Part shown: piece by piece, positions 1 through 31,896 of the stretch | Layout of the letters: each line of letters begins with the position of its first letter | How positions within the stretch are numbered: the stretch's first letter is position 1 | Notes under the pieces: generated by a model | The model's database searches: none | Seen by the model: only the letters and a program-made list of their open reading frames with translations | Told to the model about the DNA's origin: nothing | Assembly: GCA_002505935.1 (NCBI GenBank) | Contig: DAWL01000147.1 | Location: 6,393-39,107 of the forward strand | DNA from: Euryarchaeota archaeon UBA226 | GTDB lineage: Archaea; Thermoplasmatota; Poseidoniia; Poseidoniales; Poseidoniaceae | Direction of reading: 5' to 3' | Length of the DNA stretch: 32,715 nucleotides | Translations under genes and position numbers: made by a program

Positions 1-3000
1 CTGGCTCAGATTCTGGTTCTGGAACAGCCTCTGGCATCGGTTCAGCCTCATTCTCTGCGGCCTGAACAACTTCTTCAGAACCAGATTGCATCTTGACGAT
101 ATACTTGACAAAGTGATTGAGAGTAGGATGTTCTGCTAAACTGAATGACTCATCTACTGGAAGTGAGAACCGCTCTCTGATGTCACCCATCATTTCCGCT
201 TGTTTCACAGTGTCAATTCCCAATTCACCCTCTAGATCCTGATCTAACTCGATGAAATCCTCAGGATAACCGGTATGTTCCACAACCACCTCTAGGACAA
301 CTGCTTCGATTTCGCTTCGATCCACCTCTACAGAAGCGGCACTCTTCGCGGGTTCTACCTGTTCCTCAGTTTCTGGTTCTGGCTCCTTTGCTGTTTCTGA
401 AACAGGTTCTTCCTCTACCTTGTCATCAATCCCTGATTCCACAGGAGCAGATGCCATACTGGAACCTGACATTTTGAGAATGTAATCGATCATGTGATTC
501 AAGGTAGGGTGCTCAGCGAGGATAAACGATTCATCTACTGGTAAAGAGAACTTTTCGCGAATATCTCCCATGATTTCGGCCTGCTTGACTGTATCAATGC
601 CCAATTCACCTTCCAGATCTTGATCTAATTCGATGAAATCTGCAGGGTATCCGGTGTGTTCCACTACAACCTCGACAACCGTAGTTGAAACCGAATCCTT
701 GTCAACACTCGAGACCGACTCTACTGTAGACGGTGGTGAATCTTCCTTAGGTACCGGTTCAGGCTCTGCTTCTACGGCAGGTTCCGGAACGGTTTCGGCT
801 TCTTTGCTCATATCTTCTCCAGGTTTCCAATCCTCGCCCTGTACGCCGCCATGTAGATTGTCTTCCCCATCAAGATATGCAACCAATTTACCATCCAAGA
901 CCTTCAATTGTAAGTTGTCTGTTCCTGCAAGTTTCTGATTCCATCGCATCAATCTATCCATGTCGATTCTATCGCCCTGAACTTCACATGAGCGCATGAA
1001 TGTGATTGCGACCTGGCTACCGAAACCTGCAGCAAATCGCAATCCATACCTCATATTTTCATGATATCCTCCCTTGCTCAGATTGAGATCTCCTAATTCA
1101 GGATCTACCTCCTTGTGATTTGCAATAGGAGGGGCGCGTCCGGTATGTAGGGCGTGAACCATCGAAGCATCTTCGATTCCCGCCCCCATAGGATGCCCTG
1201 TGAATCCCTTTGTATTGGAAATGACCAACGAATCGGTATCTTTGCCGAAGGTCTCTCGCAAGGCCCTTACTTCTGCTTGAGCAGAACCTCCTCTCGCTGG
1301 AGTGTAGGTCTCATGACTGTAGAAGAAAGTCTCAGATGCGATCTCCTTACGATTAACTCCCCATCTATCTTCCATCTGGGACACGAAACGATCAACCTCT
1401 GCAGCAACATGCTCAACATCCAATCTGGTCCCATGATAAGATGAATTGGCGATATGCGCTCCAAGCAATTCCGCATACGGCTGAACTCCCCTCTGTGTGG
1501 CTTCGCTCTTGCGCTCAATGACAAATGCGGCTGCGCCCATACCAAGAATCAGTCCATTTCTACGGGCATCGAAAGGAAGAGCCGCTTCCTCGATGACATT
1601 GCTTGTGGATGCGGCCCCACTGGCTGCGAAACCTGAACCAATCCACTCCCAAAGATCTGGGCCAGTGACGTTATCAGCGCTGATTATTACTACTCTATCA
1701 CAACGGCCAGTAGTCAACCAATCCTCGGCTAAAGTGAATGACGCTGCAGTAGAAGCACACGCTAAATTGATGGTGCTGTTAGGGCCTCTAATTCCCGTAT
1801 ATTGTGCGAATTGGGAATGTCCCATATTCAGTATCTGAAAAAGATATGACCTGTCGAAACGTCCCTCTTCATCAGACCCGTTGTGGGCACTATGTTTGAC
1901 GGTTTTAGCGGAACCGGGGAAACAACTGGAGAAGATAACCCCTGTGCGGTCGCGATATATCTGAGGTATCTGCCAATTAGTTATGAGACGCAAACCTCCC
2001 TTGCCAATCTTCTCCTCTGGAGTCAATGGTATTCCAGCATCGCGTAAAGCAATGAGTCCTGCTGCCACTGCTAATTGAGTAGAAGTATCCCAAGAACGGG
2101 CAATCTTTGCATCAACTCCGAATTCTTCGGTTATGTCGAAGTCTCCTGCCAAACCTGCTAGTTGTGGAATATCACCGAATTCCTCAGCAGCCTCCATCCT
2201 CGCTTGTCCATCTCTGCCTTTGATTAGGCGTACGATGTTCTTGTCGAGAATTTTCTGCTTGTAATCATCCGGCACTTCGCTGATACAAGTTTCTCCACGT
2301 ACTAATTTCTCGAAATTATCATCATCGAATACCTTGCCTTTACCTGGCAACCCAAGACTGACTCCAGTCACGACAAATGGGTCGTCTCTGCGACTCTGCA
2401 ACGGGTCTGTCGAGACTACTTTCTCAACGACCTTCTCTACCACCTTATGAACGACTTGTCCTTGCGGAGCAATCGCTTGGTTAGGAGAGGATTTAGGGCG
2501 CTTACTGGATGTAGCCGCACGGAAATTCTCCGGCACTCCTTCTACCCAATCGCATATTTGCGCAGCTGTCTTGATTTCAGAAGTATCAAAGTCAGCAGCA
2601 ACTCTACCTTGTTTCTCAAGGGAATTGAATACAGATTGAACTACTTCATCACTCAATCCTAAACCGCTGCGAAGATCTACATTTCCACGACACATAGTGG
2701 CGGGATATCCACTAACTCCAGCAAGAATACTTGCTATCCACTCAATCTCGAGTTCTAATTCATCCATTCCAGAATCCTCGGCAAGTACCTCCACATCTGT
2801 CGTGGCTACTGGTTGGGGGGCTTCTGGTACAACCTGTTCTACAGATTCAGGTAAAGCCACAGGCATTTCCTCAGTTTCTTCTTGCCAAGCCTCGATTGGC
2901 CCTGCTCTGAACCCTTCAGTAAGCAATGGAGAATCTGAACGCGGCCAGCGATATGGGCGTCCTGCAACCGCCATCTCGGCTAGAGCATTGAACAGAGACG

Positions 3001-5947
3001 GAATTCCACCAAACTTCGGATGGTTAGTCATCATTGAGATGTGAGGTCGCTTCTCTAGAATCTGTGAAGCAAACACAGTCAATGCACGCTTCGGACCTAC
3101 CTCAACAAATAGGCGAGCACCTGATGCATACATGGTCTCAATCTGTTTTGTCCATTCCACTGCACTAGCCATCTGCGGAGCCAATTTGTCCAAAACTTGC
3201 TGCTTTGCGGTTCTCTGAGAATCTCTACTCATCGGATAGAAGCCGCCATCCACATTCGAGGTTATTGGAATCTCAGGCAAATTGATTTCAAGTCCTTCAA
3301 GGAATCTTCGCAAAGGTTCCGCTGCCGGCTCAACAATAGTTGAGTGGAAAGCGTGGCTGGTCTGCAAGGTGACACAATTGATGTCTAGTCCCTCGAACCT
3401 TCGTATCGCTTCCTTGACTGAAGGAGTATCTCCAGCAATAACAGTCATCTTTGGTGAATTCTTGTTGGCTGCAATGACATACCCATCAATTGATGCTAGA
3501 ACGTCCTTAATCACATTGTAATCAGCGGTCACGGAAGCCATCAGCCCCTTGTCGAAGATCTCAACAGAACCCATCTCAGTTCCTCGAGCTGCTGCTGCTC
3601 GCAAAGCCCCGTCCATTCCAAGAATTCCTGAAACCATCAATGCGGCATATTCTCCCAAACTGTGTCCTGCCACCATGTCAGGTCTTCGTCCATGGTCTGC
3701 AAGAATCTGGTTGATTGCTAAATCGGCAGTCAACATAGCTGGTTGAGTATACTCTGTCTGCTTGAGTTTCTCTTCGGCTTCAGCGCGCTCTTCTTCATTC
3801 AATCCACTACGCAACACGAAACTGGAAAGAGTCTCTCCATCGAGAATATCCACCATGGTCTTGTCAGCCTGGTTCCAAACATTTGCCACACCAGAGAATC
3901 GCTTACTCAAATCCAACGTCATTCCAACGTATTGACTACCCTGACCAGGGAACATATGCGCAACCTTGGCATTGCTTGGCAATGGCGCCTCGTCGGTAAT
4001 CAGAATTCCTTGCGACTTGAGGAAACTCCACTTGTCCCTTCCTTCCATGGTCTTCAAAGCCAAAGCGCTGCGCTTGTCAAACTCAGCCCATGATGTAGCG
4101 ATTATCGCAATCCTACAGCCAACACAAGTGAAACCTTCGCTGGCAGCGGCTAATTCCTTGGATAACCGCCTTCCCAATGGATCTTCATCAAATGTTTTTC
4201 CAGATGAAAGCAATTGCTCTCTGGCTTGAGTCAATTCCTCCTTCAAACTCTCTACATCATCAGATTCAAGCAACAATATTCCGCCTTCAATCTCCTTGAG
4301 TTCCTCCCATGTCATACTGGGAGAGGCCTTGGCATCGAGGATACTTTCGGCACTTTCCTTAGCCACCTTGGCCTTGGCAACAATACCTCCGGCTGCTACT
4401 TTCTCTGCAACTACGGGAGTTGTAGATACGGGCTGCGGTCCAGCTAGGAAAGTAGCCCATCTACTCCTCCATTCGATCGCAATCTTGTGATGGAATCGCT
4501 TGTCAAACTCCTCCATAACTACGTGCCAATTGGTCCCCCCAAAACCGAAGGCAGAAACGGCAGCTCTACGCGGTCTATCCTTTGGACGTGGCCACTCTCT
4601 AGCATATGTTGGGACATAGAATGGAATGGAATCCCAATCTACGGTTGGATTCGGAGTTTGAAATCCTGCGCTGGGAGGAATAACTCCCTTGCTGACTGCA
4701 CTAATCGTTTTCAACATCCCAGCAATTCCAGCAGCCGCTTTGAGGTGTCCAATCTGGCTTTTGACAGAACCTACTGCAACATTGTCTCCCGCAGGTGATT
4801 CATGCCACAACTTGCGCAAAGTTCCCAACTCCATCGCATCCCCAACCTTTGTTGAGGTCCCATGAGCTTCGACAAGATCCACAGTTGCTGGACTGAAACC
4901 TGCCTGTGCATATGCTCTAGCCAAGGCTTGCATCTGTCCTCTTTGACTAGGCGCGGTTATCCCCTTTCCTCTACCGTCGCTGCTAGCTCCGATTCCCCTG
5001 ATGACTGCATGGATATCATTTCCATCTTCGATGGCATCATCTAGACGTTTGAGGACCAATACTCCTGCACCTTCACCCATTACGAATCCATCTGCGCGGG
5101 CATCAAAAGGAGTGGAATGTGTAGGTGAAAGAGCACCGATAGCACTGAACTTAGCATAAGTTGCAGGATCCATAGTGCGATCGCTGGCACCAGCCAACAT
5201 CAGATCGACCTGACGAGCCTGTAGCATTCTGCAGGCATCAAGAACCGCAGACATTGTTGAGGCACAAGCAGCATCGGTAGAATGGTTAGGCCCCTGAAGA
5301 TCTAGCAAGTTAGCAACTCTGCCAGCCATAACATTGGCGAGTTCACCAGGCATAGCATCCTCATCAATCTCCGGTTTGCCTTCACTGATAGCCTGCTTCA
5401 GAGCATCCCTGCCGGACTCAGGCATTCCTCCCGCCTCAACTGCCTGACGAGTGAACTGATCTGCCCATACTCGATGGTTGGAGAGATTCCTGAATTCTCC
5501 TCCAAGAGCATTTGCCATGACAACTCCTGTGGATGCATTTGGAATCGAAAAGCGCGAGTCATCTCCAAGATAGCCGGCATGCTCCAAAGCTGCTGCTGAT
5601 GCAGTTACTGCCCATTGTTGACAAATGTCAATCTGCCCAAGAGTTCCAGGGGGCACCTTCCAGCGACGCCAATCGAAATCATATCCCTCAACGAATGCCC
5701 CAATCTTGGCGTAAGTTTTGGCATACTCCACTTGACCGGGCGAACCAGGGGCCCAGAAATCATCGATACTCCATCGATTAGATGGCACCTCCTTGATTGA
5801 AACATGTGCATTAACGATATTATTCCAGAATTTGGCGATATCTTCAGCATCGGGCATGATACAGCCCATACCTACGACTGCAATCGGTTCAAAGGGACCT
5901 TGTGCAGTTCCTTCTAATTCAGCAATACTGATTTCTTTAGCAGACAT
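1..5947 (-). CDS. Type I PKS/FAS-like megasynthase, C-terminus cut by the window edge (at least 1982 aa). Domain order: KS, AT, degenerate carrier-like, KS, two or more tandem carrier domains
   Basis: The ORF is absent from the supplied track because it runs off the left edge. Hand translation of the minus strand from ATG 5947..5945 (MSAKEISIAELEGTAQGPFEPIAVVGMGCIMPDA...) met no stop down to base 1. Motif anchors all fall in one frame. KS1: DAACAS, Cys codon 228 (5264-5266), EAHGTSTKVGD, SVKSQIGHLKAAAG. AT: FPGQGSQ, GHSLGEY (codons 761-767, 3647-3667), SHAFHS. KS2: INLACAST, Cys codon 1397 (1757-1759), SHETYTP, NTKGFTGHPMG. Carrier motif LEGELGIDTVKQAE occurs twice (codons about 1786 and 1913). 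An SD-like GAGGGG overlaps the fabI stop 6 nt upstream of the ATG. Confidence 0.85.
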   Translation of the reverse strand, partial: MSAKEISIAELEGTAQGPFEPIAVVGMGCIMPDAEDIAKFWNNIVNAHVSIKEVPSNRWSIDDFWAPGSPGQVEYAKTYAKIGAFVEGYDFDWRRWKVPPGTLGQIDICQQWAVTASAAALEHAGYLGDDSRFSIPNASTGVVMANALGGEFRNLSNHRVWADQFTRQAVEAGGMPESGRDALKQAISEGKPEIDEDAMPGELANVMAGRVANLLDLQGPNHSTDAACASTMSAVLDACRMLQARQVDLMLAGASDRTMDPATYAKFSAIGALSPTHSTPFDARADGFVMGEGAGVLVLKRLDDAIEDGNDIHAVIRGIGASSDGRGKGITAPSQRGQMQALARAYAQAGFSPATVDLVEAHGTSTKVGDAMELGTLRKLWHESPAGDNVAVGSVKSQIGHLKAAAGIAGMLKTISAVSKGVIPPSAGFQTPNPTVDWDSIPFYVPTYAREWPRPKDRPRRAAVSAFGFGGTNWHVVMEEFDKRFHHKIAIEWRSRWATFLAGPQPVSTTPVVAEKVAAGGIVAKAKVAKESAESILDAKASPSMTWEELKEIEGGILLLESDDVESLKEELTQAREQLLSSGKTFDEDPLGRRLSKELAAASEGFTCVGCRIAIIATSWAEFDKRSALALKTMEGRDKWSFLKSQGILITDEAPLPSNAKVAHMFPGQGSQYVGMTLDLSKRFSGVANVWNQADKTMVDILDGETLSSFVLRSGLNEEERAEAEEKLKQTEYTQPAMLTADLAINQILADHGRRPDMVAGHSLGEYAALMVSGILGMDGALRAAAARGTEMGSVEIFDKGLMASVTADYNVIKDVLASIDGYVIAANKNSPKMTVIAGDTPSVKEAIRRFEGLDINCVTLQTSHAFHSTIVEPAAEPLRRFLEGLEINLPEIPITSNVDGGFYPMSRDSQRTAKQQVLDKLAPQMASAVEWTKQIETMYASGARLFVEVGPKRALTVFASQILEKRPHISMMTNHPKFGGIPSLFNALAEMAVAGRPYRWPRSDSPLLTEGFRAGPIEAWQEETEEMPVALPESVEQVVPEAPQPVATTDVEVLAEDSGMDELELEIEWIASILAGVSGYPATMCRGNVDLRSGLGLSDEVVQSVFNSLEKQGRVAADFDTSEIKTAAQICDWVEGVPENFRAATSSKRPKSSPNQAIAPQGQVVHKVVEKVVEKVVSTDPLQSRRDDPFVVTGVSLGLPGKGKVFDDDNFEKLVRGETCISEVPDDYKQKILDKNIVRLIKGRDGQARMEAAEEFGDIPQLAGLAGDFDITEEFGVDAKIARSWDTSTQLAVAAGLIALRDAGIPLTPEEKIGKGGLRLITNWQIPQIYRDRTGVIFSSCFPGSAKTVKHSAHNGSDEEGRFDRSYLFQILNMGHSQFAQYTGIRGPNSTINLACASTAASFTLAEDWLTTGRCDRVVIISADNVTGPDLWEWIGSGFAASGAASTSNVIEEAALPFDARRNGLILGMGAAAFVIERKSEATQRGVQPYAELLGAHIANSSYHGTRLDVEHVAAEVDRFVSQMEDRWGVNRKEIASETFFYSHETYTPARGGSAQAEVRALRETFGKDTDSLVISNTKGFTGHPMGAGIEDASMVHALHTGRAPPIANHKEVDPELGDLNLSKGGYHENMRYGLRFAAGFGSQVAITFMRSCEVQGDRIDMDRLMRWNQKLAGTDNLQLKVLDGKLVAYLDGEDNLHGGVQGEDWKPGEDMSKEAETVPEPAVEAEPEPVPKEDSPPSTVESVSSVDKDSVSTTVVEVVVEHTGYPADFIELDQDLEGELGIDTVKQAEIMGDIREKFSLPVDESFILAEHPTLNHMIDYILKMSGSSMASAPVESGIDDKVEEEPVSETAKEPEPETEEQVEPAKSAASVEVDRSEIEAVVLEVVVEHTGYPEDFIELDQDLEGELGIDTVKQAEMMGDIRERFSLPVDESFSLAEHPTLNHFVKYIVKMQSGSEEVVQAAENEAEPMPEAVPEPESEP
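95..697 (-). repeat. Tandem duplication of carrier (ACP-like) domains, period 381 nt (127 codons)
   Basis: Copy 1 is about 476..697 and copy 2 about 95..316. Both encode VVEHTGYP(A/E)DFIELDQDLEGELGIDTVKQAE(I/M)MGDIRE(K/R)FSLPVDESF.LAEHPTLNH. They are separated by Glu/Pro/Ala-rich linkers. More copies may lie beyond base 1. Confidence 0.8.
990..2383 (-). other. Ketosynthase domain 2 of the megasynthase (approximate borders)
   Basis: DPFVVTGVSLGLPG start, INLACASTAASF active-site Cys, FDARRNGLILGMGAAAFVIE, YSHETYTPARGG and SNTKGFTGHPMGAG. The active-site Cys is retained, so this is not a CLF-type domain. Confidence 0.75.
2543..2764 (-). other. Degenerate carrier-protein-like segment between AT and KS2
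   Basis: The sequence DELELEIEWIASILAGVSGYPATMCRGNVDLRSGLGLSDEVVQSVFNSLEKQ has the helix pattern of a PP-binding domain. Its motif reads GLGLSDEV instead of DLGxDS, so the Asp-Ser dipeptide is transposed or lost. Confidence 0.4.
3053..3970 (-). other. Acyltransferase (malonyl-CoA:ACP transacylase-like) domain (approximate borders)
   Basis: AHMFPGQGSQYVGM, MVAGHSLGEYAALM and TSHAFHST motifs appear in the expected order and spacing. Confidence 0.8.
4583..5899 (-). other. Ketosynthase domain 1 of the megasynthase (approximate borders)
   Basis: The Cys-His-His triad motifs DAACAS / EAHGTST / GHLKAAAG are present, and the domain ends with FGFGGTNWHVVMEE. Confidence 0.8.
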
Positions 5948-5956
5948 GTTGACCCC

Positions 5957-10133: not shown

Positions 10134-13100
10134 TCATCCCTGTTGGCGGACCCAATCACGCAGTTGCTCCACTGACCAGCCCATGTCGAAGTATCCCTGA
10201 ATGGTTTGTTGGTCCCACTGTGGGAATTCAGCCAAGGCTTGTTGCATCTCTGCAGATACCTCAGTTCCATAACTTCCGTATCCACCACCAGCATGGTCGT
10301 AACCACCTCCGCCATAAGCTCCTTCAGCACCTCCACCATATCCTTGCTGAGCCTCGTATGGCAATGTTGGGTATGATTTTTCATCCTCATATTCGTACTC
10401 GTCATCGTATTCACCTTCGCTACGACCTCGCAGCACCAATACTACAACAACGATGATGAGAATACCAATCAAAGCACCTAATGCTGCTAGAATCATTCCG
10501 ATTGGCAAAGAGTCATCGGTTTGAGTTGCTAGACTAATGTCGTAAGTCTGGCCAGCATTAATACTCGTATAGATCAATTCACCAGTCAAATTATTGGTTA
10601 TCTCAAAGTGAAGATCCGCCTTTGCTTCTCTGAAAGGCTCAATCGACACCTCCATATTGTGAGAATTTGAACCAAGAGTCCCATCGAATACGCCAATCAT
10701 TGGTGTTGAAACGATAGCCACGGTTGCCCGAGCGCCATCGCTTGCTGAGACTACCTCTATCTTCATCTCAAGAATTCCTTCGGTGTTTCCATCATTACGT
10801 ACGGTAATGTCAAGTTGAACGTCTTCACCTACCTCGGGAGCATTCGGGAACATCTTGAATTGGGTCACCTCAAATTCTGCTTGCTCGTATACCACTTCAT
10901 ATTCGCTGGTCCATTGATCCTGTGTCCCACGAATCGGATTTTCGGAATCGCCTCCTCCAGACAAACCTAGACCTGCAGTATCCCTGCCGGTCACCCAGAA
11001 TCTCAATATGACGTTCTGCAATTGTGCCCTACTAGGAAGTTCATGGCCATCTGGCCATAGATCGATACATTCGGCGCTTTCAGCGATTATCTGGTCACCG
11101 CCACCTACGAGACTGAGATTCTTCGATAATGCACCGCCATAATTACTCTCGGCGAAACTCCAATTCTCGCCATTCTGGAAATACATCCAGTTGACATAGA
11201 TAGACTGTGGCGATAGGCGCTCTGTCTCCTTAATCATCAACTGAACATCAACGCAATGTATCGATGATGATGGCATGATTCCATCTGAAAGAGTTGCGCC
11301 CTTAGTGTCAGTCACTTGCCATGTATTGGCTAATACCTCTGGAGCGCTACTGTCAACTTTGATTCTGAAGACTTGTGAAGTGGTAGTGTGGTCAACTGCT
11401 CCCTCAGGCAATGAAGAGGCCTGAACTTGGAATATATATCTGAAATCATTCGTTTTGCTAGGGGCGGTCAGATTGATTGAGAAAGTTCCTCCGTCAAATG
11501 GATGGTAGGTTGTCTCACCCAAAAGTTGCTCATTACCACTGGAATCCGCTGATGCATCTTCTCTAGTAATTACCATGACCATTGGTATTTCTGGAGTGAC
11601 AACATGGTCTGGATATCCATCCTTGAATGCATATTGACCCGAGAATTGTACAGTATCTCCTGAATAGACATAATCCATACTTGAGCCACTGCCGAAATCA
11701 TATACGGACTCGGTGATGAACGGACCCGTCATATCCGTCAATTGCAAAGAAGTAGTATCCAAGAGGAATCCATCTCCATAAATCCACCTCTGCTTGTACC
11801 TACCTCCAGATTCGGTCAATACCGAAGAAGGATTATTGGGATCCAAATCCTTGACACGAACTTGAGGTGTCATTACAGAAGTTGCAGTAGGAATTGCCCA
11901 CTGTAAGCGAATCGGCATATCGAGCATGAATTCTGTCTCGAATGGATCAATCAATGCCTGCCCATTTCTACGAAGCATCTGAGTACCGTCGCTTTCGTTA
12001 GATGCTTCAATAATCTCAATCCACTGACTATCTGTAATAGCGGTATTATTTCTCGGATAATACTTGAGGACCATATCTCCGGGCACACCTGGGTTCAAAT
12101 CTATCTCATAAGACTGGATATCTCTCCAACCATTGTCATCTCTTCCCTCTACTATGAGATGATACTCATTACCTGCATACATCGTCTTAGTAGTGGTGTC
12201 AAATTCATTTCCTGCAGAATCACGAATCTTGAAACTCTCAATACCTGGATTGCGACTTCCCATGCCGACATAAGATACCAAATCATGATCCAGTCCGGGT
12301 GAACCGGCCATGATCAGATTGCCCGCTAGATCATTACCGGAGACGTAGAGGCTGACCCGACCATCATAACCATCATTGGCAATATCATTGATACTTCCAT
12401 AATAATAGGAGATAGGAGCGCCACCGTCACCTGTCATCTCCAACTGACGATACTCACTCTCCTGTGGGATTCCGTCACCGTCATCGTGGTCTTGCTGAAC
12501 CCAATAGTTGAGCATCAACTTCTCAGGAGGCTCTGGGATATCTTGTGCAGAGAAATTGAACCATTGAGTTTGAGATGGCTCTACCCACGTATCGTCATAC
12601 AAAGGCCTCCAATAACCACCAGAATGGCTGGGTGATGCTGAACCATCCCACACCATTGTTTCGACAAGAGATGGTGAATATGTGTCAATCGTCAGCTGGA
12701 ACTCAACTTCGCAATCTGGACCTGGGAAATATTCCGCAGGTGGACACAAAGTATCGCCACCAGAATATTCAGACATTCGGAAACGATAATTCTCTGTTCC
12801 TGCAGCGTCTTCACCAAGATCAACCTGCCAATCGAAGTCTCCACTGTTTGGTCCGGAAGCGTTACTGATTTCAAGCCAAGAATAAGTTATGTTCGAGGGG
12901 TCGGTATTGTTGATGATTAGTCGCTCCAAAAGAATACGATATGCTGAGGGATCCGGTGCTGCATCCAACCCTTCCAACCTGATACTTCCAACCAGACGTA
13001 ACATCTGATTGGAACGGGCATCTGACAAGGTCTGTGATTCACCTGCACTATTCTGAACGTCAAAAGCAGTTATTCCAGCATCGTTCTCAATTGCATTACC

Positions 13101-15953
13101 TTCACTCGGCACCAAGGCAATCGCTCCGGGAAGTCCCTCTACTCCATTATCTGCAATTAGAGTAGCAAACAAACGCGCTTCTGGAGAATCCTCCCATGAC
13201 GGATTGATAGTAAACCTCCAAGTTATCTTCTTGGCTCCAAGAAGATCTTCAGCAGTAGACGATTGCAAAGTTATCAGATTCTCGCTATCATCTACTTCCC
13301 AGAAATCCATCAGGTCTGAGTAACCCAACTCGATGGAACCGCTCGTAGATTCGATTCTCAGACGAGCCTCTTGGAATGATGCACCGGTAGAAGAATCGAT
13401 ATTGTGCATACTGACTGCTTCGATTATTCTGCCATCTGGGTAAAGCCCTTCAGGAGAATCCGTCAAAGTAAGTGTGCTGTCGTAACCATTCGCTGAAGTT
13501 ACTGATAGATCAAACAACGACAAGGCGCCACCCGAAGTTGCGTGCATCTTGAACGGTACATCTACGAACCCTCCTACTTCAGTTCCTAGAGCGATACCCT
13601 GAGATAACTCGCGTACCAAATCATGAGTACTACCGAGTTCTGTGTTCCAATCGTACAGAATAATCAGATTCTGCATCCTCATACTTGCTCCAGTTGAAGC
13701 ATTAGGACTCTGAGCCTTGAAGTGGAAAGATAGCCATTCATTTCCATATTGATCAACATGGCTTGTAGGCACCATTGGATTGTTCATCAATGAGTTCAGC
13801 GCACCTTTGAAGTCGACATCAGGAGTATTGAAACCACCGCTGGACCAAGTGCTAACGTTCTGCCATTCACCTAAGGTCACATTCTGTGAACCGGACAAGA
13901 TATCCATGACGAATCCCTCTTCGGGGTTATTGTTTGAGTAAATTGTATTCTGGTCCAGTGCAACTTCTGCGGCGAGGATATTTGCACCTCTAGGCAACAT
14001 GAATGTTCCACCTTGGCCAACTCCCGATGGACCCAAAGTTACCATGCTACTATCCTTGGCCAAATTGATTTCACCAACCTTCGTATCCCAGAAAACGTTC
14101 TGCTTACCGAAATGGCCGAAGGCAGGCTCTGCAAAACCCCACTCGTAATCTCCATCTCCTGCGATGTCTAGAAGGACACTTCTGGGACTGAATCCGAATT
14201 GTAAGTCAAACCACAAACCAGTGACTGAACACGGAACTGAATATGAGACATGAGTGACGAAACTGAATAACGGTTCATCAGGTGTCCACATTTGATTGGG
14301 AGTTACCGAAACAGGAGCTGATTCTCCAATTTCCATTTCAATACTTGGATCATCAGTACAATCATCTGTGATGATTGGTTTAATTCCAGTTATCGGCTGA
14401 TTGAAACTGCTTTTTAAGGCAGGAGGTGATATCGAATTATCAGTCAAAGTAGGGAAAAACATCAGCATCTCGCCCATGACACCACTTGTTGACCACTGCC
14501 CTTGCTCTGCGGGTGGACTTGCTATCAGCATACGGGTATCATTGAATCCGCTTCCGACTCTACTGCCCAGATGGATAGCGTGTAAAGTTGGAGTGGAAAG
14601 ACGATAGGTTCCACTATCAAAGTTGAACCTAAGTTGAATCTGCGGATATTGTGAAGCATTGATACCCCACAACTCGATGGTATTGCCCTCTAATCCGGAA
14701 AGGACTTGGCCTGAATTGTCAACAACCACATCAGTTCCTTGAGCATTCAATATGTCTACACTCAAACTATTGGTAGAAGTGGTTTCAGATTCCAATTGCA
14801 AGAAGCCGTATCCATCTGGGAAACCATGCTGACCCATTGCCAATGATGCGGAGAAACCTTCGACGACAACGCTTCCTGATTGTGGCAGCAAATCTCCCAA
14901 CCTGAAGTCATCGATATACCAACCTGGAAGGAAAGAGTCGGCCGGATTCTTTCCAAGATTCTCATTTCTCTCGAGTACGAAACGTAGCCGGATGTATTTG
15001 TTCATATGTTCTCTAAGGTCTAATGCCAAAGTTCCCCATCCGTTGGGATTCAACTGAGAGTGGACTGAAGTGCCTCCCAATGCATAACTTCCTGTTGCTA
15101 CCCCATCACAATATGTAATCTTGTTATGCCCATTACCGACAGGGTACAAACCATTGCTGTAGCTGATTCCACTACTATTGGCAACATCAAAATCAATAGT
15201 TTGCCATGCGTTAGCCCAATCCATTCCGTTGGAAGAGATATCATATTGAACATATGCGCAATCATACATGTTATTCACCGGATTACTTGAGGTGCCGGAA
15301 TTATTGTAAAACAATGAATGGTAAGATGAAAACTTAGCTATGTAACCAGTCGGGCTAACCCACATGCTTGGGCTATACAATTCAAACTCGAACGGACTGC
15401 CGGGTTGACCATCGTCGGGATAGTACGAATCAAACGGATTAGTACCCCAACATGACTCTCCACTATTGCAACTCAAGTTGATGACATCCTGATTTGTCAT
15501 TATCGCATGATCAAAACTACTCATTGCAGGAGGAATGGCACTGGAATGGAAGCCAGCATCAGTATTCTCAAAATCTGTTGTGAAACCATCACTGATCAAA
15601 CTTAGATACTTCTCGGTGTAGGTGAAATCATCCTTATTGCTGTAGGAAGTTCTTTGATTGTTGTAAGAAGGGTCCCAAATATCCGCATTGTTACTCGCAT
15701 CAAAGGTAATCACTTGACTATGGTTAGCCATTGCTGTACCAACTTTCACCGATGCACTGGTCACTGTACCTCCATCCGGTAGAGCTACGTTTCCATCCAC
15801 TACATTCGTATAAGTCAAAGGCTCCTTGACCTCAATAACAACTTCTTCTGAACCATTTCCGAAGGTCGTAGTTGTAGTCGCTGAAGATAAACTACAGAAT
15901 AACATTAGGAACACGAATAGCAATGCAGGAATACTCTTTCTTTCATTCTTCAT
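10134..15953 (-). CDS. Giant (1939 aa) secreted surface protein with a C-terminal TM anchor and a Gly/Tyr- and acid-rich cytoplasmic tail
   Basis: Signal-like N-terminus (IPALLFVFLMLFCSLSSA), followed by about 1800 aa rich in Ser/Thr/Asn/Asp/Gly and aromatic residues. A CARDB-like segment (PNAPEVGEDVQLDITVRNDGNTEG) lies near the C-terminus. The TM segment is LPIGMILAALGALIGILIIVVVVLVL. The tail reads RGRSEGEYDDEYEYEDE...GYGGGAEGAYGGGGYDHAGGGYGSYG. GAGGTGA sits 5 nt upstream of the ATG. Confidence 0.85.
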   Translation of the reverse strand: MKNERKSIPALLFVFLMLFCSLSSATTTTTFGNGSEEVVIEVKEPLTYTNVVDGNVALPDGGTVTSASVKVGTAMANHSQVITFDASNNADIWDPSYNNQRTSYSNKDDFTYTEKYLSLISDGFTTDFENTDAGFHSSAIPPAMSSFDHAIMTNQDVINLSCNSGESCWGTNPFDSYYPDDGQPGSPFEFELYSPSMWVSPTGYIAKFSSYHSLFYNNSGTSSNPVNNMYDCAYVQYDISSNGMDWANAWQTIDFDVANSSGISYSNGLYPVGNGHNKITYCDGVATGSYALGGTSVHSQLNPNGWGTLALDLREHMNKYIRLRFVLERNENLGKNPADSFLPGWYIDDFRLGDLLPQSGSVVVEGFSASLAMGQHGFPDGYGFLQLESETTSTNSLSVDILNAQGTDVVVDNSGQVLSGLEGNTIELWGINASQYPQIQLRFNFDSGTYRLSTPTLHAIHLGSRVGSGFNDTRMLIASPPAEQGQWSTSGVMGEMLMFFPTLTDNSISPPALKSSFNQPITGIKPIITDDCTDDPSIEMEIGESAPVSVTPNQMWTPDEPLFSFVTHVSYSVPCSVTGLWFDLQFGFSPRSVLLDIAGDGDYEWGFAEPAFGHFGKQNVFWDTKVGEINLAKDSSMVTLGPSGVGQGGTFMLPRGANILAAEVALDQNTIYSNNNPEEGFVMDILSGSQNVTLGEWQNVSTWSSGGFNTPDVDFKGALNSLMNNPMVPTSHVDQYGNEWLSFHFKAQSPNASTGASMRMQNLIILYDWNTELGSTHDLVRELSQGIALGTEVGGFVDVPFKMHATSGGALSLFDLSVTSANGYDSTLTLTDSPEGLYPDGRIIEAVSMHNIDSSTGASFQEARLRIESTSGSIELGYSDLMDFWEVDDSENLITLQSSTAEDLLGAKKITWRFTINPSWEDSPEARLFATLIADNGVEGLPGAIALVPSEGNAIENDAGITAFDVQNSAGESQTLSDARSNQMLRLVGSIRLEGLDAAPDPSAYRILLERLIINNTDPSNITYSWLEISNASGPNSGDFDWQVDLGEDAAGTENYRFRMSEYSGGDTLCPPAEYFPGPDCEVEFQLTIDTYSPSLVETMVWDGSASPSHSGGYWRPLYDDTWVEPSQTQWFNFSAQDIPEPPEKLMLNYWVQQDHDDGDGIPQESEYRQLEMTGDGGAPISYYYGSINDIANDGYDGRVSLYVSGNDLAGNLIMAGSPGLDHDLVSYVGMGSRNPGIESFKIRDSAGNEFDTTTKTMYAGNEYHLIVEGRDDNGWRDIQSYEIDLNPGVPGDMVLKYYPRNNTAITDSQWIEIIEASNESDGTQMLRRNGQALIDPFETEFMLDMPIRLQWAIPTATSVMTPQVRVKDLDPNNPSSVLTESGGRYKQRWIYGDGFLLDTTSLQLTDMTGPFITESVYDFGSGSSMDYVYSGDTVQFSGQYAFKDGYPDHVVTPEIPMVMVITREDASADSSGNEQLLGETTYHPFDGGTFSINLTAPSKTNDFRYIFQVQASSLPEGAVDHTTTSQVFRIKVDSSAPEVLANTWQVTDTKGATLSDGIMPSSSIHCVDVQLMIKETERLSPQSIYVNWMYFQNGENWSFAESNYGGALSKNLSLVGGGDQIIAESAECIDLWPDGHELPSRAQLQNVILRFWVTGRDTAGLGLSGGGDSENPIRGTQDQWTSEYEVVYEQAEFEVTQFKMFPNAPEVGEDVQLDITVRNDGNTEGILEMKIEVVSASDGARATVAIVSTPMIGVFDGTLGSNSHNMEVSIEPFREAKADLHFEITNNLTGELIYTSINAGQTYDISLATQTDDSLPIGMILAALGALIGILIIVVVVLVLRGRSEGEYDDEYEYEDEKSYPTLPYEAQQGYGGGAEGAYGGGGYDHAGGGYGSYGTEVSAEMQQALAEFPQWDQQTIQGYFDMGWSVEQLRDWVRQQG

Positions 15954-27944: not shown

Positions 27945-28948
27945 TCGATCACCTCGAATGAATCAATCATATCCCTACAACGCGACTTCACTTCTTCATC
28001 ACTCATCCGAACCACCACGCCCTTTCGGGGTTGGCCATATACCAGTACAGCATTCAATGGTAACAATAAGTGCAATGGAATCGGTGCAAGATCTTCTTCA
28101 CCATCAACTGAGATGACACAATCAACCTCACTATGCAAGGCTTTTCTGCAGGCCGAAACCAAACTGGAAGAGATAGTCCCTGGTGGATTGCTGCAAGTTA
28201 TCACTTCGCTCCACGAAGAGAGGTCGACCTTATCTGAATCTGCTAATTCAACTCTTTTGGTCTGCCCATCCACTACCGCGATATTTGGCCTCCTTCCTAA
28301 CTCGACCATCGTCTGAACACAAACATCGCCCACTGCCACAATAAAGGCATCTTCTGACACCTCCTCAAGGAACCTATACATCGCCACCTCAGGTGAATCT
28401 TCAGGACCTTCGTACAGAACACCCATGGGCTGCTTCAATGATTCGTCGAGATGTTCAGGCATAGCAAGACTAACTGTAGATTCTGGCAACCACGGTTCTC
28501 CATCTCTATCGATTAGCCCTGCCCTGATTCTAGTACTGCTGATAATCCCTCCAATGCCATCATTCAGGTGTTCGGCTTGAATAATCTCCAATGGACTAAG
28601 TCCATTCTCTTGCCTAATCGAATTTATTCTCTCGCAATTCTCTCGGGTTTCAATCGTGCAGATAATAGCGTCGCAATCCTCTCTGACCGGGGCTGGACCA
28701 AGTTGATCTCTTAGGATATGAACGCTGATTCTATTGCCGTGATTCAACTCGGCCCAATCCGTTAATTCCTCTATTCGCTCCTCCAAAGGTAGGACCAAAG
28801 GTGATTTGGAAGTGGACATCAAATCATCAGATACCCAGACCTCAACATACTCGGCATTACTCGCTGCTAATTGCAGAAGATGCTTGTGTCCTGCGTGAAA
28901 CCTGTCAAAGGTACCGCCAACCAGACAGCGGGAGAATCTTCTCTCCAT
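27941..28948 (-). CDS. Fused phosphopantetheine adenylyltransferase (archaeal/eukaryotic type) and DUF359-type GTP-dependent dephospho-CoA kinase
   Basis: The N-terminal half has LVGGTFDRFHAGHKHLL ... IISSTRIRAGLID, the archaeal PPAT pattern (GGTFDxLHxGH, ISSTxIR). The C-terminal half has LKQPMGVLYEG, VAVGDVCV, VVDGQTKR, SNPPGTIS, VDGEEDLAPIPL and VYGQPRKGVV, the conserved DUF359/COG1909 blocks. Confidence 0.8.
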   Translation of the reverse strand: MERRFSRCLVGGTFDRFHAGHKHLLQLAASNAEYVEVWVSDDLMSTSKSPLVLPLEERIEELTDWAELNHGNRISVHILRDQLGPAPVREDCDAIICTIETRENCERINSIRQENGLSPLEIIQAEHLNDGIGGIISSTRIRAGLIDRDGEPWLPESTVSLAMPEHLDESLKQPMGVLYEGPEDSPEVAMYRFLEEVSEDAFIVAVGDVCVQTMVELGRRPNIAVVDGQTKRVELADSDKVDLSSWSEVITCSNPPGTISSSLVSACRKALHSEVDCVISVDGEEDLAPIPLHLLLPLNAVLVYGQPRKGVVVRMSDEEVKSRCRDMIDSFEVID

Positions 28949-28954
28949 TGGTAC

Positions 28955-29289
28955 ATTGCGCCGGTTGGGAGCGAATAGGAGTTACCTTCGAAAGAATGTG
29001 CCCCAGCGTGTAACAGCCCTCCTCACTGTCTCCTCAGGGGCATGACCCTCACGCTGGGGCGTCTGTCCGATTGAGGGGTTGTCTTGCCTTCATCCTCTCG
29101 TCCGGCAAGGACCCATACTCGATCGGTATCGCCACCCGTTTGCTCCGAGGTTCATTTCCGAAGATCCCCTCGGTCTTCGCGGGTGGCAGACCGCACTCAT
29201 TGGTACCAGCTCTCATTGCGCCAACCCGGCGAGGGAGGCACTCCAGTCGGTGTTGCTGGTGCGGCAGACTCGCCTGAACCTGCCTCTAT
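28955..29289. ncRNA. GC-rich, highly structured element: candidate unclassified ncRNA or structured leader
   Basis: No credible CDS is present. All three plus frames are open across about 29071..29277, as expected for a GC island. A closing helix pairs 28959..28968 with 29231..29241 (10 bp, one bulge) and encloses three long hairpins. Hairpin one spans 29001..29059 with a 10-bp outer stem. Hairpin two spans 29067..29126. Hairpin three spans 29131..29187, with an 8-bp outer stem, a 6-bp inner stem and an apex that reads C(UUCG)G on the minus strand. The strand is unresolved, though the UUCG apex mildly favours minus. Confidence 0.4.
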
Positions 29290-31896
29290 TCAATCCTTTG
29301 ATGGCAACTGGACTTGACTTGGACTCAACAAATCCTCATGAAAACCACTCAAACCAAGACGCAATCTACTCTCAATCAATTCATCACGAGCAAGCGATGT
29401 AGGAAGCATCGAGATTGAAGACCATTGCTCGACCGGCCGGACTAACCAACCTGCACAAGGGTGAGTCCTACCACTTCTAGGCGATTCTTCAGAAATCAAA
29501 TCTTCAATTGACTCGAGTAAATCCAACAATCCCGCCGAACCTTCATCCTCGCTGTTTTCCAAATTCACGAGATAATGTCGCATCAACAGGTGCAGACCCG
29601 GCGTCATTCCAAGATGCTCAGCATCTATACCTGGACAATTTACCCTCTCACCCTTTGGCCTCAAACAATATGCTGCCCATGACCTATGAGATTGAAGCAG
29701 CCATTCGCGGCCCTCTTCTGATTCTAACTGGGCTGCTAATATGCCTGGAGATAGATGTGCCCACCATTCCCCATCCAAATTATCGGCAATCACTTGCATT
29801 TCAAACAACGACGGTGTTCTAATTTGCGCACTCCATTCCGCAAGATTTCCCCACGCCCTCAAGGGATGTTGTTCCTCTAAATTTTGAGATACTTGCAGTA
29901 CTTCCTTGTTCCAACTCTTCTTGATGAAGCCATTCTTTGAACACCATTCCAATCCACATAATGCTGCAATCACGTCTCCTGTAGGAGATTCTAGCCACGA
30001 TTTCCAAGCCCAATTGGCCATTCCTTTTCCTAGGTGAGGAATCACCCAAGGAGCAGTTGCCAATACATGCTCAGAACATATTGCCGCTGATTGCGAATCC
30101 TTTGAACGCCTCCGCATGTCTATCAGAATATCCGGTTCTTTGATTATCGCCGCCCTCAACAATTCAGAAGCCTGTTTCTTCCACTCAACTGGAGCAGAAA
30201 TGGAAACATCCACAAGCTCATTCAACGGTACCAACTCGGGGCGCAACAGATCAAACCATACAGAATCTATTGACAAACCAACCCGTTGCCATCTAGCCCA
30301 TCTGTTCTGATTAGGTGTTGCAATCCAAGCCGCTTCGGGATATCTAGTCTCCACCCGGTTGGCCCAATTCTCATCACCTTCAGGATACAAGGAAGTTGAC
30401 AATAACATCGCCTCTTCGAGATTTTCTGGTTCTCCATCACTGTTCTGTATATCTGGCAGAGTATCTAGATCAGCCGGACATGTTGGAATGAACCAACCTT
30501 CAGGAGGGCGTAGCTTCTCCTCCACATTTTGACTCAATACAAAGGGTATCTCGGATGCTGTATTCAATACCAACCTTGCCATTGGCCAACCCTCTGTATC
30601 CTCCTTAACAACAAGAGCTGAAGTTGACAATTCTTCGGGGAGTACCACCAACCTCACGCTATTATCGCAGAGCAACTCCTCAAACAATTGAGAGTTGAAT
30701 GGTCTATGCGCCGGCCAATTCACAACTAATTGTTTACCACTCTCCATAACTACCCACTGCATTACCGCCTTGAGCGCATTGTCATCCAACTGAGAAACAT
30801 CCCATTCAACATTAGTATCCATGAAATGATTCTCCTGCCATTCGACATCTTGCCAAGAGTCTCTGAATCTCTGCCAAGTGGTAGAGACACGAGAGCGCCT
30901 TCTTCTAGCACGCCATCCGGTCAATGCAGCCTTCTGCACCTGAGTTAGTCGATCTCTCAATTCGGCGGGAGGAAGTCGCGGATGAGCCTCGTGAATCCAA
31001 CGTTCAAGTATATCCACTGGCAAAGGAGAACTCGATGGACGATCTGACAATACGATTGCGCCATCTCGTGCAGCATTACACAGCATAGTTGCAACATATC
31101 TCTCTCTAACAACCGCAAGAACTGGGGCATCCGGCTTAACCAAAGGTGCCTTTGCGTGTACCTCTCCAAGTACCCAATCTCCGGTTCTGATAGAATAAGG
31201 CAATTCGGGTGTAACATGCCATTCCTCTTCGCGGAACCAAGATCCTGCGGCTAACGAATCCGTTGAATTTGGCGAAAGCGAACGAGCCCTTACCAATCCT
31301 ACAGTCATCGGTCTTTGAGACCAACCCTCAATGGTCTCTATGGAAGTTTGTTCCGGCATCCCTATTCTTTCGAGAGTATTCGCATCATACCATCGTAAAT
31401 CCTTTTCAGTAGGCCAAGCCCAAAATGGATGAGCCCCCACCCCTACATTTCCTGTGGAAGTTGATTCGTCTGAAATTCCCCTTTCAGGAATCAATAATAG
31501 GCCCCTCGAAGGGTTCTTCGCGTAAGCCAATAGTAGTGAATCGCCATCTCTCGCGACAATGCAACCTTCCCCTCCAGGAGGTATTCCTGAACGTAACAAT
31601 GCCCTCAACCTGGCTAATTCATCCGACTCCAATAAGGCATGTCCGGTGGAGGTTAATCTCTGGACTGCACCGCGCGAAGCATCATCCCGATCTGCGGCCA
31701 CATGGCCCTCGTCACGCAGCTTTTTCAATTCAGCAGAAGCATGTGGGAGACGTAATCCAGTAGCCAAAGCAGCTTCACTCACTTTGCAAGCTCCAACACT
31801 CAGGTGTGTCAATAGACGACGACGGTAGTTACTACGGATCTTCGCCGGCACCTCAGGTATCCTCCTGATGAATCGACGGAAAGCAGTAGTTATCAA
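29290..31896 (-). CDS. Large (868 aa) Trp-rich orphan protein with an N-terminal MarR/TrmB-like winged-helix domain
   Basis: A long uninterrupted ORF. The N-terminal segment RRRLLTHLSVGACKVSEAALATGLRLPHASAELKKLRDEGHVAADRDDASRGAVQRLTSTGHALLE has a wHTH pattern. I saw no Walker, nuclease or polymerase motifs. The apparent start is a TTG at 31896. Confidence 0.6.
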   Translation of the reverse strand: MITTAFRRFIRRIPEVPAKIRSNYRRRLLTHLSVGACKVSEAALATGLRLPHASAELKKLRDEGHVAADRDDASRGAVQRLTSTGHALLESDELARLRALLRSGIPPGGEGCIVARDGDSLLLAYAKNPSRGLLLIPERGISDESTSTGNVGVGAHPFWAWPTEKDLRWYDANTLERIGMPEQTSIETIEGWSQRPMTVGLVRARSLSPNSTDSLAAGSWFREEEWHVTPELPYSIRTGDWVLGEVHAKAPLVKPDAPVLAVVRERYVATMLCNAARDGAIVLSDRPSSSPLPVDILERWIHEAHPRLPPAELRDRLTQVQKAALTGWRARRRRSRVSTTWQRFRDSWQDVEWQENHFMDTNVEWDVSQLDDNALKAVMQWVVMESGKQLVVNWPAHRPFNSQLFEELLCDNSVRLVVLPEELSTSALVVKEDTEGWPMARLVLNTASEIPFVLSQNVEEKLRPPEGWFIPTCPADLDTLPDIQNSDGEPENLEEAMLLSTSLYPEGDENWANRVETRYPEAAWIATPNQNRWARWQRVGLSIDSVWFDLLRPELVPLNELVDVSISAPVEWKKQASELLRAAIIKEPDILIDMRRRSKDSQSAAICSEHVLATAPWVIPHLGKGMANWAWKSWLESPTGDVIAALCGLEWCSKNGFIKKSWNKEVLQVSQNLEEQHPLRAWGNLAEWSAQIRTPSLFEMQVIADNLDGEWWAHLSPGILAAQLESEEGREWLLQSHRSWAAYCLRPKGERVNCPGIDAEHLGMTPGLHLLMRHYLVNLENSEDEGSAGLLDLLESIEDLISEESPRSGRTHPCAGWLVRPVEQWSSISMLPTSLARDELIESRLRLGLSGFHEDLLSPSQVQLPSKD

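Follow-up and report, generated by a model that had tools for sequence, protein, structure and literature searches.

The question raised by this locus is what kind of element fills the GC-rich island between two minus-strand genes in a 32,715-nucleotide stretch of Poseidoniaceae DNA (contig DAWL01000147.1, hereafter the window), one gene encoding an 868-aa protein and the other the coenzyme A (CoA) biosynthesis enzyme PPAT-DPCK. The initial annotation had seen a non-coding, multi-hairpin element bracketed by direct repeats, and had offered an independent RNA, a leader or riboswitch-like element of the CoA operon, or an insertion with duplicated target sequence. We find that the island is very probably the gene of a box H/ACA pseudouridylation guide small RNA (sRNA), lying on the minus strand at approximately 29268..28990 and about 275-280 nt long. 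Most likely this RNA guides the conversion of uridine to pseudouridine in the large ribosomal RNA (rRNA), within its catalytic centre.

The first indication of the class came from Rfam. At gathering thresholds no family matched anywhere in the window, and ARAGORN detected neither a tRNA nor a tmRNA. In E-value mode, cmscan of 28850-29400 gave a sole meaningful match, to RF00064 (HgcG/Pab40) on the minus strand at 29188..28992 (40.8 bits, E=7e-10). The match spans model positions 57-276 and aligns three hairpins with their kink-loop (K-loop) and ACA motifs, and three relatives (L003, L252 and L254) match the same family, the three scores being 35.7, 33.4 and 22.8 bits. Since RNA-seq of P. abyssi placed the start of the true Pab40 transcript at the first H/ACA motif (PMC4652768), the unmatched first 56 positions of RF00064 are probably not RNA. 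The families of signal recognition particle (SRP) RNA, RNase P RNA and C/D-box sRNA gave no match to the 551-nt region even at E<=10, in agreement with the initial annotation, which had looked for the first two and found neither.

The RNA is built from four tandem hairpins. In each, a lower stem leads through an internal-loop pocket to an upper stem of 6-7 bp, which is topped by a GA...UGA kink-turn (K-turn) or K-loop. From the 5' end, their parts are as follows.

29191..29264, minus strand: HP-0, the extra 5' hairpin; lower stem CCGCAC/GUGCGG, upper stem ACCGACU/AGCUGGU.
29258..29252 and 29204..29197, minus strand: HP-0 pockets, 5' CAGCAAC and 3' ACCAAUGA.
Minus strand: HP-0 K-turn, G-GA ... 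AAU-GA-G, with C-helix GUGCC/GGCGC and apical CCC/GGG.
29131..29187, minus strand: HP-A, aligned to motif 1 of RF00064; lower stem GCCACCCG/CGGGUGGC, upper stem CCGAGG/CCUCGG.
29179..29174 and 29144..29139, minus strand: HP-A pockets, CGAAGA and AGCAAA.
Minus strand: HP-A K-turn, G-GA-UC[UUCG]GA-AAU-GA-A.
29127..29129, minus strand: AUA (ANA-type) box of HP-A, read from the sequence; 14 nt from the guide nucleotide adjoining the target U.
29067..29126, minus strand: HP-B; lower stem CCGAUCGAG/CUCAAUCGG, upper stem CUUGCC/GGCAAG.
29117..29110 and 29082..29076, minus strand: HP-B pockets, UAUGGGUC and ACAACCC.
Minus strand: HP-B K-loop, G-GA-CGAGAGGAU-GA-A.
29064..29066, minus strand: ACA box of HP-B, invariant in 14/14 sequences (A203 C204 A205); 15-16 nt from the target-adjacent guide nucleotide.
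29000..29060, minus strand: HP-C; lower stem GCCCCAGCGU/ACGCUGGGGC, upper stem GCCCCU/GG(A)GGGC.
29000-29010 and 29050-29060: lower-stem arms of HP-C.
29050..29042 and 29015..29010, minus strand: HP-C pockets, GAGGGUCAU and UGUUAC.
Minus strand: HP-C K-loop, GA-GGAGACAG-UGA.
28997..28999, minus strand: 3'-terminal ACA box of HP-C, ACA in 13/14 sequences; 15 nt from the target-adjacent guide nucleotide.

The three hairpins drawn by the initial annotation are HP-C, HP-B and HP-A; they lie where it had placed them and are conserved with compensatory changes in the 14 loci. Its minus-strand UUCG apex also stands and belongs to HP-A (29131-29187), while the two stretches it had quoted turn out to be the upper stem and 3' guide of HP-A (UCGGAGCAAAC) and the 5' guide, upper stem and K-loop of HP-C (GGUCAUGCCCCUGAGGAGACAG). 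What it had overlooked is the fourth, 5'-most hairpin (29264..29191), which holds both right-hand copies of the direct repeats. In the K-turns and K-loops the 5' strand carries G-GA and the 3' strand NNU-GA-N; the GA and the NNU-GA are invariant or nearly so in all four hairpins, and at the sequence level each hairpin has a putative L7Ae site. An ACA follows HP-B and HP-C and an AUA follows HP-A, and there is no such box after HP-0, the 3' flank of which reads UCU. The single deviation in the terminal box of HP-C is a UCA in L005 (DUDM01000034.1), the most divergent member of the window's own clade with 60% PPAT-DPCK identity. The distance from box to target-adjacent nucleotide in published guides is 14-15 nt (PMC2377435) or 14-16 nt (PMC7991803) and the upper stem measures 5-6 bp (PMC2377435); the spacings of HP-A, HP-B and HP-C (14, 15-16 and 15 nt) and their 6-bp upper stems fall within these ranges. 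The features that define an archaeal box H/ACA guide sRNA are present in HP-B and HP-C, and largely so in HP-A. In HP-0 the structural H/ACA features are present, without an ANA box and without a significant target.

The structure was evaluated on relatives recovered as 6 genome loci, 4 metagenome contigs that duplicate those types, and 9 distant loci reached through exact-protein look-ups of PPAT-DPCK homologues with 84% to 47% identity to the window's protein. A fixed-length DNA pattern for HP-C had returned the 6 genome loci only, and a junction pattern the 4 metagenome contigs only, each a duplicate of known types. The main alignment (A3) comprised 14 sequences and 58 pairs in 8 helices, an earlier set being limited to six close sequences. 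In the former 91.3% of cells were paired, falling to 35-44% when the partners were slid by 1-3 columns; both sides had changed in a compensatory manner in 43 of the 58 pairs, all 8 helices were supported by such changes, and none of 500 shuffles reached any of the five observed whole-structure measures. Even the six close sequences had 95.6% of cells paired and 9 pairs changed on both sides. The pocket strands and the GA/UGA of the K-turns are invariant or nearly so while the stems vary, as seen in HP-A where compensatory changes affect 7/8 pairs of the lower stem and 6/6 of the upper.

HP-0 behaves in the same way. Its segment, the ~100 nt upstream of the HgcG match (29264..29191), is as conserved as the remainder of the RNA, RNAalifold recovered both its lower and its upper helix from that segment alone, and compensatory changes were found in 4/6 pairs of the lower stem and 5/7 of the upper. 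In distant members the upper stem reads AUCGCAG/CUGUGAU, AUCACCG/CGGUGAU or AUCGAUG/CAUCGAU, the lower stem CCGUAC/GUACGG or CCGCAG/CUGCGG, and the C-helices are capped by UUCG or GCAA loops, with the pocket cores GCAAC and ACYA(A)UG invariant throughout. The 5' pocket as a whole is CAGCAAC, AUGCAAC or CUGCAAC, depending on the member. The alignment also settles the strand. G-U or U-G pairs are numerous and would turn into C-A on the plus strand; since these pairs together with the orientation of the K-turn (GA/UGA) and ACA motifs fit the minus strand, the RNA is placed there. Folding z-scores for the whole region were unhelpful for this choice.

The conserved pockets were then matched to rRNA. 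Targets were scanned with flexible pocket borders in four Poseidoniales 23S rRNAs (L205, L198, L132 and L178), and as a null 300 shuffled guides per hairpin were scored against 16S and 23S. The best sites were identical in all four 23S sequences and are given in E. coli numbering.

HP-C: 5+8 bp (13) at U1915, helix 69 loop; shuffles as good, 0/300.
HP-B: 7+6 bp (13) at U2555, or U2554 in U-N-N mode, A-loop (helix 92); shuffles as good, 0/300.
HP-A: 4+5 bp (9) at the 2496 equivalent, base of helix 89; shuffles as good, 6/300.
HP-0, best site: 3+6 bp (9) at the U2606 equivalent, helix 93; shuffles as good, 52/300.

The pocket of HP-C pairs with 23S GUAAC-UA-UGACCCUC, that of HP-B with GGGUUGU-UC-GCCCAU and that of HP-A with UUGC-UA-CUUCG. 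The helix 69 target was predicted from the HP-C guide first and was only then found by a scan for sequence plus flank, which returned the 23S genes of many Euryarchaeota, five of them on Poseidoniales contigs. The U-N-N mode is known to be functional (Muller et al., PMC2377435). For HP-B a weaker alternative of 5+4 bp exists at U2586. A search of E. coli rRNA with rigid pocket borders yielded no convincing site, and no recurrent 16S target was found across 115 Poseidoniales 16S loci (L013-L127, <=8 kb, Eury806 probe). Since none of these 115 loci contains a 23S gene, a separate retrieval of 23S loci (L128-L247) was needed; the same count (0/115) suggests that 16S and 23S genes are unlinked in Poseidoniales, as they are in Thermoplasmatales.

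If the RNA acts like the characterised archaeal H/ACA sRNPs, L7Ae would bind each hairpin at its K-turn or K-loop, and Cbf5-Nop10-Gar1 would bind at the lower stem, pocket and ACA box. The two pocket strands would base-pair with the 23S rRNA sequences that flank an unpaired U-N, and Cbf5 would isomerise that U to pseudouridine. The predicted pseudouridines are U1915 for HP-C, U2555 or U2554 for HP-B and the 2496 equivalent for HP-A, and HP-0 may target U2606 in helix 93.

The known RNAs closest to this one are the three-motif H/ACA sRNAs of Thermococcales and Archaeoglobus, namely Pab40/HgcG (RF00064), Pf7, Pho40 and Afu4. With Pab40/HgcG it shares tandem H/ACA hairpins, the K-turn or K-loop, the ACA boxes and the covariance-model similarity described above. 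In P. abyssi 23S rRNA, motif 1 of Pab40 guides modification at 2588 and motif 3 at 2016, which lies in the loop of helix 69 (PMC2377435). The HP-A target coincides with the first of these sites (P. abyssi 2588 corresponding to E. coli 2496, an offset of ~92 nt) and the HP-C target with the second (2016 corresponding to U1915, an offset of ~101 nt), so that by position as well as by target HP-A is the counterpart of motif 1 and HP-C that of motif 3 in Pab40, Pf7 and Afu4. The secondary site of HP-B, U2586, is P. abyssi 2678, which has been proposed as the true target of motif 2 of Afu4/Pf7 (Muller et al., PMC2377435). Between the orders guide and target have changed in step, 23S ACCUCG in a Thermococci metagenome-assembled genome (MAG) versus ACUUCG in Poseidoniales being matched by the 5' guide cGAgG in the Pab40 consensus versus CGAAG in HP-A. 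There are also clear differences. The RNA has four hairpins rather than three, the extra one (HP-0) standing at the 5' end and being kept throughout the family; an ANA box is lacking after HP-0, and that after HP-A is degenerate in many members; the middle hairpin, HP-B, fits best at A-loop U2554/2555 and not at P. abyssi 1932 or 2678; and the host belongs to a mesophilic marine Thermoplasmatota lineage. Since the score of 40.8 bits is under the curated gathering threshold of RF00064, 77 bits, the RNA is not filed in that family. Judged from its sequence, we consider that it works like Pab40/HgcG, Pf7 and Afu4 and is in part orthologous to them.

Archaeal H/ACA sRNAs are reviewed as having one, two or three hairpins (PMC2377435, PMC7991803), and therefore the four-hairpin layout is a variant architecture; atypical features are known among H/ACA guides (PMC7991803). 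Each hairpin taken singly has the layout of the single-hairpin H/ACA sRNAs (Pf9/Pab160, Pab91), with the ACA of HP-B and HP-C 15-16 nt from the target-adjacent nucleotide, but there are four such units per transcript. The H/ACA-like sRNAs of Pyrobaculum, which Bernick et al. are said to have described in 2012 (see also Toffano-Nioche et al., 2015, PMC4652768), reportedly include guide-like hairpins without a canonical ACA box and also without a lower stem. Compared by description, HP-0 resembles them in having no canonical ACA box and differs in keeping a covarying lower stem of 5-7 bp. In Haloferax volcanii, sR-h45 is reportedly (from work attributed to Blaby et al., 2011) a two-hairpin H/ACA RNA guiding pseudouridines in helix 69 and domain V; by description it is likewise an archaeal guide with more than one hairpin, directed at helix 69 and at the peptidyl-transferase region, and it differs in hairpin number and sequences.

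Several observations weigh against assigning the whole RNA to the H/ACA guides, and some of them concern HP-0. This hairpin is without an ANA box in all 14 sequences, its upper stem has 7 bp versus the published 5-6 bp, and its rRNA match is not significant, being equalled by 52 of the 300 shuffled guides. When a full-length HP-0 target was sought in the 3.5 Mb of fetched loci, the matches were single and scattered and no better target recurred. The AUA of HP-A is kept in closer relatives only, and is absent or degenerate in L005, L254, L255, L257, L259 and L260; the ANA box has been reported as necessary for Cbf5 binding (PMC2377435). For the RNA as a whole, no Rfam family is reached at a gathering score (HgcG at 40.8 of the 77 bits required), the folding z-score of the region is a modest -1.8 on the minus strand versus -3.5 on the plus strand, the 23S sequences scanned belong to other Poseidoniales MAGs instead of the genome that holds the window, and we infer transcription, protein binding and pseudouridylation in this uncultured organism.

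The alternative that survives these points best accepts an H/ACA sRNA but holds that HP-0, and perhaps HP-A, is a structural or chaperone module binding L7Ae through its K-turn, serving for example in RNP assembly, stability or rRNA folding, or else a guide for a non-rRNA target that was not sampled. We regard this as possible, if somewhat doubtful. In its favour is the missing box of HP-0. The poor performance against shuffled guides and the lack of a recurrent target in the fetched loci point in the same direction, as does the 3' pocket, ACCA(A)UG, being conserved beyond the 3 bp of the proposed duplex. When the invariant 5' strand of HP-0 was searched for long antisense matches in 16S and 23S, none went past 9-12 nt with wobbles. 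On the other side, HP-0 has the complete layout of hairpin, pocket, hairpin and K-turn with invariant pocket cores, and its 5' guide, AGCAAC, matches GUUGCU, a sequence specific to Poseidoniales 23S. The proposed helix 93 site adjoins P. abyssi 2697/2698, which are pseudouridylated in archaea and eukaryotes (PMC2377435), and the duplex reaches the reported minimum for efficient activity of 3 bp per side (PMC7991803). The helix 93 site is a plausible one, and that HP-0 is itself an active guide we would rate as somewhere between doubtful and evenly balanced.

The second alternative is that the island serves the PPAT-DPCK (CoA biosynthesis) operon as its structured 5' leader or as a riboswitch-like regulator, as the initial annotation had entertained. 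It is favoured by the position of the RNA, directly upstream of PPAT-DPCK on the same strand in 14/14 loci. The signals around the RNA are as follows.

29286..29294, minus strand: promoter-like A/T-rich box ATTGAATAG, overlapping the stop of the 868-aa open reading frame (ORF), ~26 nt upstream of the first stem.
28991..28996, minus strand: T-rich tract UUCUUU, directly after the last ACA.
28971..28979, minus strand: PPAT-DPCK promoter-like box CCTATTCGC, ~25-30 nt before the ATG, outside the RNA and conserved in the window's clade.

In all 14 loci an A/T-rich box (TTGAAWA / TTCAAMA) precedes the first stem by ~26-30 nt, the relatives having sequences of the TTCAAAAAA or TTCAACAATGA type, and YCAGG occurs as a further motif ~12 nt before the sRNA. 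We infer that the box is an archaeal TATA/BRE element. Most relatives have a T-rich tract behind the ACA (ACATTTTTT in L010 and ACAACTCTTTTTTT in L259 are examples), and such a tract is probably an oligo-T terminator marking the RNA's 3' end. Since the PPAT-DPCK box is separate from these signals and downstream of the T tract, the downstream mRNA would start after the sRNA; it is probably a separate, leaderless transcript. The conserved unpaired nucleotides of the RNA are complementary to 23S rRNA and do not resemble a ligand-binding core, the RNA has K-turn and ACA motifs and is similar to HgcG, and no riboswitch family of Rfam matches. A leader is thus very improbable, and the independent RNA that the initial annotation had listed first is borne out by its own promoter-like box, the T tract after the last ACA and the covarying structure. 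In L253, L254 and L255, boxes of the TTGAATAG type take the place of CCTATTCGC; in L254 and L255 this motif type, also found before the sRNA, stands about 30 nt ahead of the PPAT ATG. The TTGAATAG / TTCAAAAAA-type boxes before both the sRNA and PPAT-DPCK, together with YCAGG, are candidate Poseidoniales promoter elements, and in several loci the stretch between these elements can fold into a small hairpin.

Still less credible is the reading of the island as an insertion or a mobile structured element, with CATTGGTAC / CATTGCGCC as the duplicated target site on its flanks. The idea came from two exact 9-nt direct repeats that bracket most of the element in the same order. Both 9-mers do exist, but their right copies lie at 29198-29206 and 29214-29222 and not at 29208 and 29224 as had been annotated. 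These right copies are inside the conserved HP-0, as its 3' pocket and K-turn strand, and the left copies, in the start region of the PPAT gene, are not conserved: GTACCAATG has become GTCTCAATG in L002 and L001, the PPAT-DPCK of which is 97% identical to that of the window. The RNA occupies the same locus in all relatives, and a search among them for an empty site with a single repeat copy found none. About 0.3 exact 9-mer repeats are expected by chance per 400 nt (our estimate), and we regard the repeats as a chance resemblance. The closing helix that had been drawn around the element fares similarly; it can be formed from 28960-28969 and ~29221-29230, the right arm not being 29231-29241, and it is not conserved. 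Repeats and closing helix are both absent in L252 (84% identity), L003-L005 and the distant members. As a processing stem the closing helix was rejected on account of its lack of conservation and its competition with the apical helix of HP-0, which is conserved. A C/D-box reading of two CAAUGAG motifs was also tried and dropped; there is no CUGA D box, and the motifs are the HP-0 K-turn strand and the HP-0 3' pocket.

That the island is a fortuitous GC-rich spacer, a plus-strand RNA or an RNA of another class (SRP, RNase P or C/D-box) is scarcely conceivable, for against the better z-score of the plus strand and the lack of a gathering-level Rfam assignment stand the covariation of 43/58 pairs, the frequent G-U pairs that are incompatible with the plus strand, the failure of the SRP, RNase P and C/D families to match even at E<=10 and the absence of C/D boxes from the sequence.

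The RNA belongs to an ordinary class; what is unusual about it is the extra fourth hairpin, and it comes from an uncultured lineage. Poseidoniales are among the most abundant planktonic archaea and are uncultured, and the locus gives them a concrete conserved guide RNA that predicts 23S pseudouridylation at helix 69, at the A-loop and at the base of helix 89. In the literature searched there was no paper linking H/ACA sRNAs with Marine Group II or Poseidoniales. A bolder proposal is that this is the first archaeal H/ACA sRNA with four functional guides and the first in Marine Group II, its two 5' guides lacking a canonical ANA box and HP-0 directing a lineage-specific pseudouridine at U2606. 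We consider this proposal unlikely as a whole; if true, one RNA would be responsible for four modifications, located at helix 69 and in the peptidyl-transferase centre. The hairpins without an ANA box would lend themselves to testing how strict the requirement of Cbf5 for the ACA is, and a partial Pab40/Afu4 orthologue in Thermoplasmatota, in which guide and target have changed together, would be useful for tracing the evolution of rRNA modification.

The GC-rich island that the initial annotation had placed between the 868-aa gene and the CoA-synthesis gene is real. It is non-coding and ~280 nt long, and its GC content is 0.58-0.62 in window 28950-29324, versus about 46% around it (0.44-0.50 in the flanks on both sides). 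The TGA stop of the 868-aa ORF is at 29292-29290, and between it and 28948 all ORFs are short and overlapping. The latter position is the ATG of the minus-strand PPAT-DPCK ORF, which has 335 aa, a cytidylyltransferase domain and DUF359 and is the archaeal PPAT-DPCK fusion. The host is a Poseidoniales (Marine Group II, Poseidoniaceae) archaeon; the nearest contigs are Candidatus Poseidoniales / Poseidoniaceae MAGs, and the window carries archaeal genes such as Orc1/Cdc6, a TBP-like gene and CoA genes including PPAT+DUF359. In all relatives the RNA is flanked by PPAT-DPCK and by a large gene of 743-868 aa without a Pfam domain (window 29290-31896, minus strand; L255 1-2176; L256 1-1140; the upstream genes of L257-L260). 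Across Poseidoniaceae the large gene is followed by the sRNA, PPAT-DPCK, a family-2 glycosyltransferase, a small gene and Orc1/Cdc6, in this conserved order, and since Orc1/Cdc6 is close by, a replication origin may lie near the sRNA locus.

Elsewhere in the window, a minus-strand ORF of 1939 aa (10134-15953) has no Pfam match, and no complete ORF of at least 140 aa is listed in 1-5956, where a very long gene may run off the left end. Public gene calls at the relatives' loci draw spurious small ORFs of 62, 80 and 127 aa over the sRNA (calls over the sRNA being at L254 1931-2471, L256 1280-1468 and L259 1501-1600). Some calls stretch the PPAT-DPCK ORF upstream into the sRNA, for example to 370 aa in L259, and several PPAT-DPCK homologues measure 373-391 aa versus the usual 328-340 aa; recognising the RNA allows both kinds of annotation to be corrected. 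Contig CAXRJJ010000080.1 (L002/L009) is an archaeal locus with a PPAT-DPCK 97% identical to that of the window and an sRNA differing at a few positions only. It is binned in a MAG labelled Yoonia sp., an alphaproteobacterium, which looks like binning contamination.

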